Assembly: GCA_965203275.1 (NCBI GenBank)
Contig: OZ241865.1
Coordinates: forward strand, 1,536,001-1,600,000
Direction: 5' to 3'
Origin: Bdellovibrionales bacterium
Lineage (GTDB): Bacteria; Bdellovibrionota; Bdellovibrionia; Bdellovibrionales; JAUICD01
Length of the DNA: 64,000 nt
The notes beneath the pieces are model-generated. The model was not told the origin of the DNA. It did not search any database and saw nothing but the letters and a program-made list of their open reading frames with translations. Positions 10,778 to 10,877 of this stretch are shown here, one piece after another. The position numbers and the translations under genes are program-made. Position 1 is the first letter of the stretch; the number at the start of each line of letters is the position of its first letter.

Positions 10778-10806
10778 TTGACTTTATCCAAAGAGGATGA
10801 GATACT
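10778..10806 (+). promoter_or_regulatory. sigma70 promoter of crRNA-like unit 1
   Basis: TTGACT-N17-GATACT with an extended -10 TG; conserved at 63411-63439. Confidence 0.7.
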
Positions 10807-10812
10807 ATAATT

Positions 10813-10877
10813 AATTTCTATTGTTGTAGATAAACCCATAATTGTTTCTAAAAGAGGCCCTTGCGGCCTCTTTTTTT
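10813..10877 (+). ncRNA. Solitary Cas12a-type crRNA-like RNA, unit 1 (19-nt handle, 18-nt segment, terminator)
   Basis: AATTTCTATTGTTGTAGAT (10813-10831), one C>T change from the canonical Cas12a handle that keeps the stem as U-G; AAACCCATAATTGTTTCT; GAGGCC-cttgc-GGCCTC-T7. Confidence 0.75.

Follow-up and report, generated by a model that had tools for sequence, protein, structure and literature searches.

Solitary Cas12-type handle genes with predicted promoters of their own, many of them behind small membrane-protein genes, in a Bdellovibrionales chromosome

The window analysed in this work, by which we mean the whole stretch of 64,000 nt, corresponds to positions 1536001-1600000 of contig C1 in genome G000. 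It contains a gene for a small membrane protein, and 50 nt past the stop of this gene a very short RNA gene begins, which we call unit 1. These features, together with a second unit and a paralogous protein gene near the end of the window, are as follows.

10301-10762, plus strand: gene for a small protein of 153 aa, with one N-terminal membrane helix and a repeat coiled coil
10778-10783, plus strand: -35 element of unit 1, predicted sigma-70 promoter
10784-10800, plus strand: 17-nt promoter spacer of unit 1, containing a short inverted repeat
10801-10806, plus strand: predicted TG-extended -10 element of unit 1, followed by a 6-nt discriminator to 10812
10813-10831, plus strand: type V-A crRNA handle in its mature form, 19 nt, with the predicted +1 at 10813
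10832-10849, plus strand: guide-like segment, 18 nt, belonging to a family of 9 short units with a common 5' block and a variable 3' part
10850-10877, plus strand: intrinsic-terminator-like hairpin and tail (A4, 6-bp GC hairpin at 10854-10870, T7 at 10871-10877)
63411-63517, plus strand: second unit, with promoter and handle near-identical to those of unit 1, an unrelated guide and a terminator
63899-64000, plus strand: start of a paralogous membrane/coiled-coil gene; a third unit follows 241 bases past the window end

A promoter, a single handle, an 18-nt guide and a terminator had been named in the preliminary description of this locus. Every one of these elements was found in place, the promoter and the +1 as predictions, and the anatomy of unit 1 as a miniature gene for a ready-made CRISPR guide-like RNA is confirmed. 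Transcription of unit 1, with its start at 10813, is predicted; the resulting RNA of about 65 nt would open with the first nucleotide of the mature Cas12 handle, so that no processing would be needed. The handle pattern has two exact matches in the window (at 10813 and 63446), against 0.7 expected even at three mismatches. The handle is of the V-A type, as had been proposed, being identical at 18 of 19 positions to the 3' end of the array repeat of its own genome, and the one difference, C to U, keeps the stem through a U-G pair. The 65-nt RNA is predicted to fold into a 5-bp handle stem and a 10-bp terminator stem with -17.5 kcal/mol (z -4.15), and none of 200 shuffled sequences folded equally well. 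An Rfam search with unit 1 gave no match near the gathering score. Beyond the terminator, at 10882-10960 of the window, lie a motif resembling a ribosome site and a frame of 21 codons.

Taken by itself, the promoter of unit 1 is not above chance (9/12 match; 4 sites versus 3.6 expected per 1 kb), and the terminator is absent from the output of the scanner used for the promoter. Support for the promoter comes from its homologues, because these precede handles: a promoter-only profile gave 16 matches at E<=6.8, with a handle next in 15 of them (12 training copies and 3 new ones) and one without a handle. Contigs from three runs, belonging to three studies, cover unit 1; in X8, a run labelled sponge metagenome, one contig spans 10667-10883 with one difference, in the handle loop. 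Run X7 shows no reads over unit 1, which carries no weight either way.

Searching the whole genome for the handle with up to 3 mismatches gave 26 matches, of which 6 are repeats of the array, 15 are solitary handles and 5 fall outside these groups. The dispersed chromosomal genes with a single handle that had been postulated do exist: the genome holds 18, with the predicted +1 at the handle, and this analysed set includes two loop variants and one promoter-less copy near 2163450. Two more handle-like stems, at G000 958667 and 1166622 (plus strand), keep the stem and lie outside the set; one of them precedes a membrane/coiled-coil gene and has a terminator after it. The genome also has a CRISPR array of six spacers at 245287-245700, whose 36-nt repeat has the same handle at its end, and solitary units stand to array crRNAs as three to one (18 versus 6). 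Across units the distance from handle to terminator ranges from 21 to 114 nt, and one unit carries a degenerate second handle. In one long unit, 12 nt resemble the 5' portion of the repeat; this resemblance was put down to a tandem duplication and set aside. At least 5 relatives keep the terminator end and have lost the handle. The handle-less module also forms the 3' half of three long units, and the handle-less and promoter-less relatives are well conserved among themselves. Their positions, and those of two further features elsewhere in the genome, are given here.

G000 1762649, 2421739, 2001561, 2242328 and 58781: handle-less relatives, mostly directly behind membrane/coiled-coil genes
G000 235349-238297 (L004 9350-12298), minus strand: truncated Cas12a, an open frame of 982 codons
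G000 2266567-2266593 (L017 ~10568): spacer of a second CRISPR array that matches a type V spacer

In a genome of the same genus (G003), all 60 handles lie within one array and no dispersed handle was found above background. The -10/handle pattern, which finds 4 copies in the own genome, gave 0 matches in 400 other genomes of the phylum, and the promoter-handle pattern gave 0 in viral, genome and metagenome collections from which the own genome may have been excluded.

When four units were compared, the promoters were identical at 32-34 of 35 positions and the handles at 18-19 of 19, while the guides agreed at 3-6 of 18, no better than shuffles, and the 35 nt upstream at 12-18 of 35. Since promoter and handle are conserved while the guides differ, promoter and handle are maintained, and the guide is replaced or free to drift. 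The handle stem is paired in 50 of 50 cells in an alignment of 10 units, which were chosen by handle similarity; only one-sided changes from C-G to U-G occur, and no two-sided covariation was found among these 10. Nine short units, unit 1 among them, have a common 5' guide block and a variable 3' part. As for the palindrome in the promoter spacer (10784-10800), five of its seven intergenic occurrences lie in unit promoters, and a form spaced by 4 nt is present in two further units. This inverted repeat is possibly an operator.

Of the 18 units, 10 follow a small membrane/coiled-coil gene at a distance of no more than 130 nt, versus 0.8% of random intergenic sites. The 153-aa protein encoded before unit 1, itself a member of this gene family, matches no curated Pfam family over the cut-off, has just 3 homologues for residues 1-62, and its Atlas matches are under 0.9. 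A profile search at E<=1e-4 gave 84 members of the membrane/coiled-coil family in the genome, a count that is partly circular because the profile was seeded from 8 unit-linked genes; most of the 84 are without a unit behind them. A one-protein search for the family in 4 relatives, run without a positive control, gave no match. At G000 209338-212474 and 654134-659491, near-identical membrane/coiled-coil genes that vary in repeat number stand in tandem, in runs of 9. A link of the units to pilin islands had been proposed as well; it proved only marginal, pilins lying within 5.5 kb of 6 of 15 loci versus 2.6 expected (p 0.035) and within 2.5 kb of 3 of 15 (p 0.21), with 40 of 42 pilin-motif matches taken into the statistics, and the tight linkage is to the membrane/coiled-coil genes instead. 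The 42 prepilin-motif matches are those of the whole 2.57-Mb genome. Remnants of HNH nuclease, serine recombinase, transposase and primase-like genes lie beside several units (30 of 137 flanking ORFs scanned). No recombinase was found near unit 1, and the 30 flanking proteins scanned include no phage structural genes or known acr/aca genes.

None of the 55 window ORFs scanned is a cas gene, as had been noted, and the type V locus lies 1.3 Mb away. Its cas12a covers profile positions 326-1287 only, the first ~355 residues being missing. The alignment of full-length Cas12a relatives (57-64% identity) starts at residue ~355, and a search for the part before it found no counterpart elsewhere in this genome, which is 90% complete. 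The truncation is not an assembly slip, because another assembly has the same truncated protein at 98.8% identity. A REC1 family search of the genome, made without a positive control, gave no match. The RuvC and crRNA-processing motifs, as read by eye, are kept. The closest relative of the truncated protein, P0005 (75%), likewise begins inside REC1, and N-terminal truncation of Cas12a is possibly recurrent. As WED-I/REC1 are lacking, the protein is probably incompetent in DNA binding, judging from the missing domains. Both cas4 and cas1 of the locus are broken, being cut short. The newest type V spacer (G000 245323-245350) shares 26 of 27 bases, in the same orientation, with a spacer of the second CRISPR array, which has another repeat; thus both CRISPR systems appear to have sampled the same invader.

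Divergent from cas12a, at G000 238802-242779, lies an intact gene for a protein of 1325 aa, for which the only significant matches to solved structures are Cas12a3 (21we and 9hlx; E 1e-71 and 2e-58). The RuvC-I, RuvC-II and zinc-ribbon motifs align with those of Cas12a3, and RuvC-III was identified by eye. The stretch spanning the tRNA-loading domain has ~45 residues, versus ~112 in Ba1Cas12a3, and is unaligned. Because this segment is ~65 residues shorter we term the protein Cas12a3-like, and tRNA-tail cutting is therefore not assured; the nuclease could belong to Cas12a4 or a sister clade instead. A single-sequence fold of its C-terminal half had a pLDDT of 36, too low to use. Cas12a3 and Cas12a4 are described as RNA-triggered and growth-arresting, and as favouring a purine-rich PFS (PMC12851939), and BaCas12a3 as requiring AA at PFS positions 2-3 and making crRNAs of 19+~23 nt (10.64898/2026.01.16.699850). 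Judged by its sequence, then, the sole intact type V effector of the genome is an RNA-targeting Cas12a3-like nuclease. The preliminary description had envisaged a Cas12-family partner acting in trans. Such a protein exists, but it is neither a DNA-binding Cas12a nor a RuvC-dead Cas12, and since the sole intact partner targets RNA, promoter repression by way of TTTV PAMs is unlikely today.

The guides gave few targets. For the guide of unit 1, no non-self match above 16/18 was found genome-wide, TTTV-flanked seed matches were in no excess over shuffled guides, and no long PAM- or PFS-flanked target was found in genome-wide, local and cas-locus searches. Nor does this guide have 9-10 or more contiguous PAM-proximal matches to the cas12a promoter region. 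Within 3 kb on either side of 17 units, no PAM-flanked guide match was found, including the match to the promoter of a linked gene that is a feature of CreTA, and the suggested addiction system finds no cognate target there. The 59 spacers of G003 gave no full-length match to this genome among the matches listed, and exact viral searches with array spacer 1 and the guide of one other unit gave 0 matches. Overall, the interpretation given in the preliminary description is partly supported, and the two roles that it offered, decoy and regulator, both remain live options.

On the basis of the observed anatomy, copy number, conservation and cas inventory, we tentatively read the units as Racr-like decoys that titrate the Cas12a3-like nuclease, a reading about which considerable doubt remains. 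Each self-promoted solitary-repeat gene would yield an RNA of about 65 nt, starting from base 1 of the handle without processing, and the 18 copies would move together with the small membrane-protein genes that they follow, in island-like DNA. Loading of the RNA would probably fall to the single intact type V effector of the host, and because the guides have no full PFS-flanked targets, the loaded enzyme would stay inactive. Outnumbering the 6 array crRNAs, the decoy RNAs would dampen a growth-arresting nuclease, to the benefit of either the islands or the host. Transcription, loading and inhibition are inferred here; several observations speak for the decoy reading: the fully paired handle stem, the upkeep of promoter and handle while guides match at shuffle level, the lack of long targets and of a TTTV seed excess, the truncation of Cas12a beside an intact Cas12a3-like effector, the mobile-element remnants beside several units, and the occurrence of the same design, singly, in 3 viral and several phage-like contigs. 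V-A Racrs are reported to inhibit Cas12a (PMC10651486), and CracrVA1, even when its spacer is mutated, to win out over crRNAs in the competition for Cas12a (10.1101/2024.10.29.618823). Several points stand against decoys. A pure decoy does not need the common 5' guide block of the nine short units, although recent common descent also explains a shared block. No phage structural or known acr gene was recognized among the 30 flanking proteins scanned, unit 1 has no recombinase nearby, and our literature search found no Racr action on Cas12a2/3/4. Furthermore, the existence of at least 5 handle-less relatives means that the handle can be lost. If the decoy reading is true, the units would be candidate RNA anti-CRISPRs for the RNA-triggered Cas12a2/3/4 group, for which our literature searches found none described, and this would be a chromosome in which crRNA mimics exceed array crRNAs three to one.

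Other readings are individually unlikely, and two of them give the guide a target. The genome contains 15 non-self sites that are perfectly complementary to the first 11 nt of the unit 1 guide. Of these, 12 are start codons of the MGFYEF-type subfamily, which is represented in the cluster at G000 654134-659491; the start regions of this subfamily rank 1 of 1953 by seed energy, and the full duplex, at about -15.6 kcal/mol, extends into the ribosome site. The RNA, on an untriggered Cas12a3-like protein or as antisense alone, might thus repress translation of membrane proteins at their start codons, which we consider unlikely. Related guides place the subfamily at ranks 1, 11, 24, 42, 58 and 728 of 1953, and the top partners of a handle-less relative, in a comparison made without a control, are 11 copies of another membrane-family subfamily. 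The match was however recognized post hoc, with a chance per guide of 0.0013 (random 11-mer) to 0.007 (shuffles), or 0.02-0.1 over 15 guides, and it is weaker still given that five target classes were tried, so that one such chance match is plausible. The 12 sites belong to one paralogous lineage, the related guides are not independent, eight other, unrelated guides have no comparable start-codon match, and the unit 1 guide does not match its own upstream gene. In addition, the bases past the target lack the AA at +2/+3 that BaCas12a3 is described as requiring (10.64898/2026.01.16.699850). A more specific form, in which a nuclease of the Cas12a3 type has been recruited as a translational repressor guided by small RNAs, one that uses seeds of ~11 nt at start codons of the expanded membrane-protein family without an activating PFS and silences without abortive cleavage, is somewhat less likely again; a regulatory role of either form would mean that a natural RNA-targeting type V nuclease is used like a microRNA effector. 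The other candidate target is in the leader of the array, 58 bp before the first repeat, and is the sole TTTV-flanked site with at least 11/12 seed matches among 155,267 PAM sites. Site and PAM are kept in the G003 leader, and the chance of such a site is 0.0008 per guide or 0.015 over 15 guides (post hoc). Unit 1 might therefore be a relic of the Cracr/CreR kind, whose guide once led Cas12a to the leader and silenced array transcription without cutting. CracrVA1 is described as working with 10 matched bases (10.1101/2024.10.29.618823), and the contig titled Desulfovibrio piger (L021) provides a positive control: there, a self-promoted CreR-like unit, whose handle precedes a cas12a-like gene by ~120 bases, has a PAM-flanked match of 9 nt in the promoter downstream. 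We regard the relic as improbable, for seed position 6 is mismatched in the leader site, with 13/18 matches overall, use of the site would need a DNA-binding Cas12a and the one present lacks WED-I/REC1, and no other guide has a comparable site at the cas locus.

Two further readings dispense with a target in this genome. The units could be constitutive immune guides for the Cas12a3-like nuclease, directed against transcripts of unsampled phages or rival islands: the guides look swapped within near-identical promoter-handle modules, one unit has the degenerate second handle, and, as the adaptation genes are broken, stand-alone guides could substitute. This is quite unlikely given that an 18-nt guide is shorter than the ~23-nt mature spacer reported for BaCas12a3 (10.64898/2026.01.16.699850), that nine guides are interrelated, and that neither array spacer 1 nor the guide of another unit had an exact match in the viral collection searched, though the phages of the host are probably unsampled. 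The units could also be non-functional hitch-hikers, a decayed repeat carried along whenever the 3' terminator module of a growing gene family was copied. Conservation among the handle-less and promoter-less relatives and the decay of the cas locus fit this idea, which is nevertheless as improbable as the relic: promoter and handle are 91-100% identical while both flanks are near random, no stem-breaking change occurs in the 10 aligned copies, and the spacing of six bases between -10 box and handle recurs in CreR-like and phage units. Under decoy and rival readings alike, the 110-bp unit of promoter, handle, guide and terminator is a compact natural crRNA expression cassette.

Lone V-A handles with a -10 box at the same distance of six bases were also found in 8 genome contigs and 3 viral contigs. 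Solitary V-A handles with a promoter and mostly a terminator occur in phage or phage-like DNA at L018, L019, L023 and L025-L029 (L027 double), and these are Racr/Cracr candidates. In the literature, solitary repeats with their own promoters are described as Racrs, including RacrVA1-3 (PMC10651486), and descriptions are also given of a V-A CreR (10.1101/2023.03.10.532045), of Cracr (10.1101/2024.10.29.618823), of crlRNAs over defence systems (10.1101/2024.12.27.630466), and of conserved V-A SRUs without clear targets together with the Cas9 scaRNA (10.1101/2023.03.03.530964). Multi-copy cases could be among the candidates tabulated with the Racr, Cracr and SRU papers. Our literature search turned up no publication in which solitary repeats act on nucleases of the Cas12a2 type or repress translation. 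As the self-promoted design is found singly in phage-like DNA and as a CreR element elsewhere, the class is known and the processing-free design is not new.

Like a Racr, unit 1 has one repeat, a promoter of its own (predicted here), no adjacent array or cas genes, a host of matching subtype and an island-like context. Unlike Racrs, which come one per phage, the units number ~18 per chromosome and are tied to a membrane-protein gene; the intact cognate effector targets RNA, and no acr/aca was identified. As to the mobile-element setting of Racrs, remnants lie beside several units, none of them beside unit 1, and no structural phage genes were found in the flanking proteins scanned. With CracrVA1 and CreR the units share a single repeat-like handle, a spacer-like part, a rho-independent terminator and possibly a short PAM-flanked site at the cas locus; they differ in having no match to the cas12 promoter, in the seed mismatch of the leader site, in the truncated Cas12a of the host and in lying away from the cas locus. 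As in CreTA/crlRNA (10.1101/2024.12.27.630466) and scaRNA systems, a crRNA-like RNA lies beside a small gene and partial complementarity is the only candidate for targeting, whereas unit 1 has no PAM-flanked match to the neighbouring promoter and its candidate target is an mRNA start codon in trans. With regard to Cas12a3/Cas12a4 as described in PMC12851939, the host protein aligns to both Cas12a3 structures and keeps RuvC-I, RuvC-II and the zinc ribbon; it departs from Ba1Cas12a3 in the shortened tRNA-loading stretch. The defining features of CreR/Cracr and of CreTA were looked for and not found, and unit 1 would most likely, if tentatively, work like a Racr. From its sequence, unit 1 belongs to a known class of solitary-repeat RNA genes and is maintained; unusual is the form that the class takes here, with about 18 cassette-linked copies in a host whose intact effector targets RNA.
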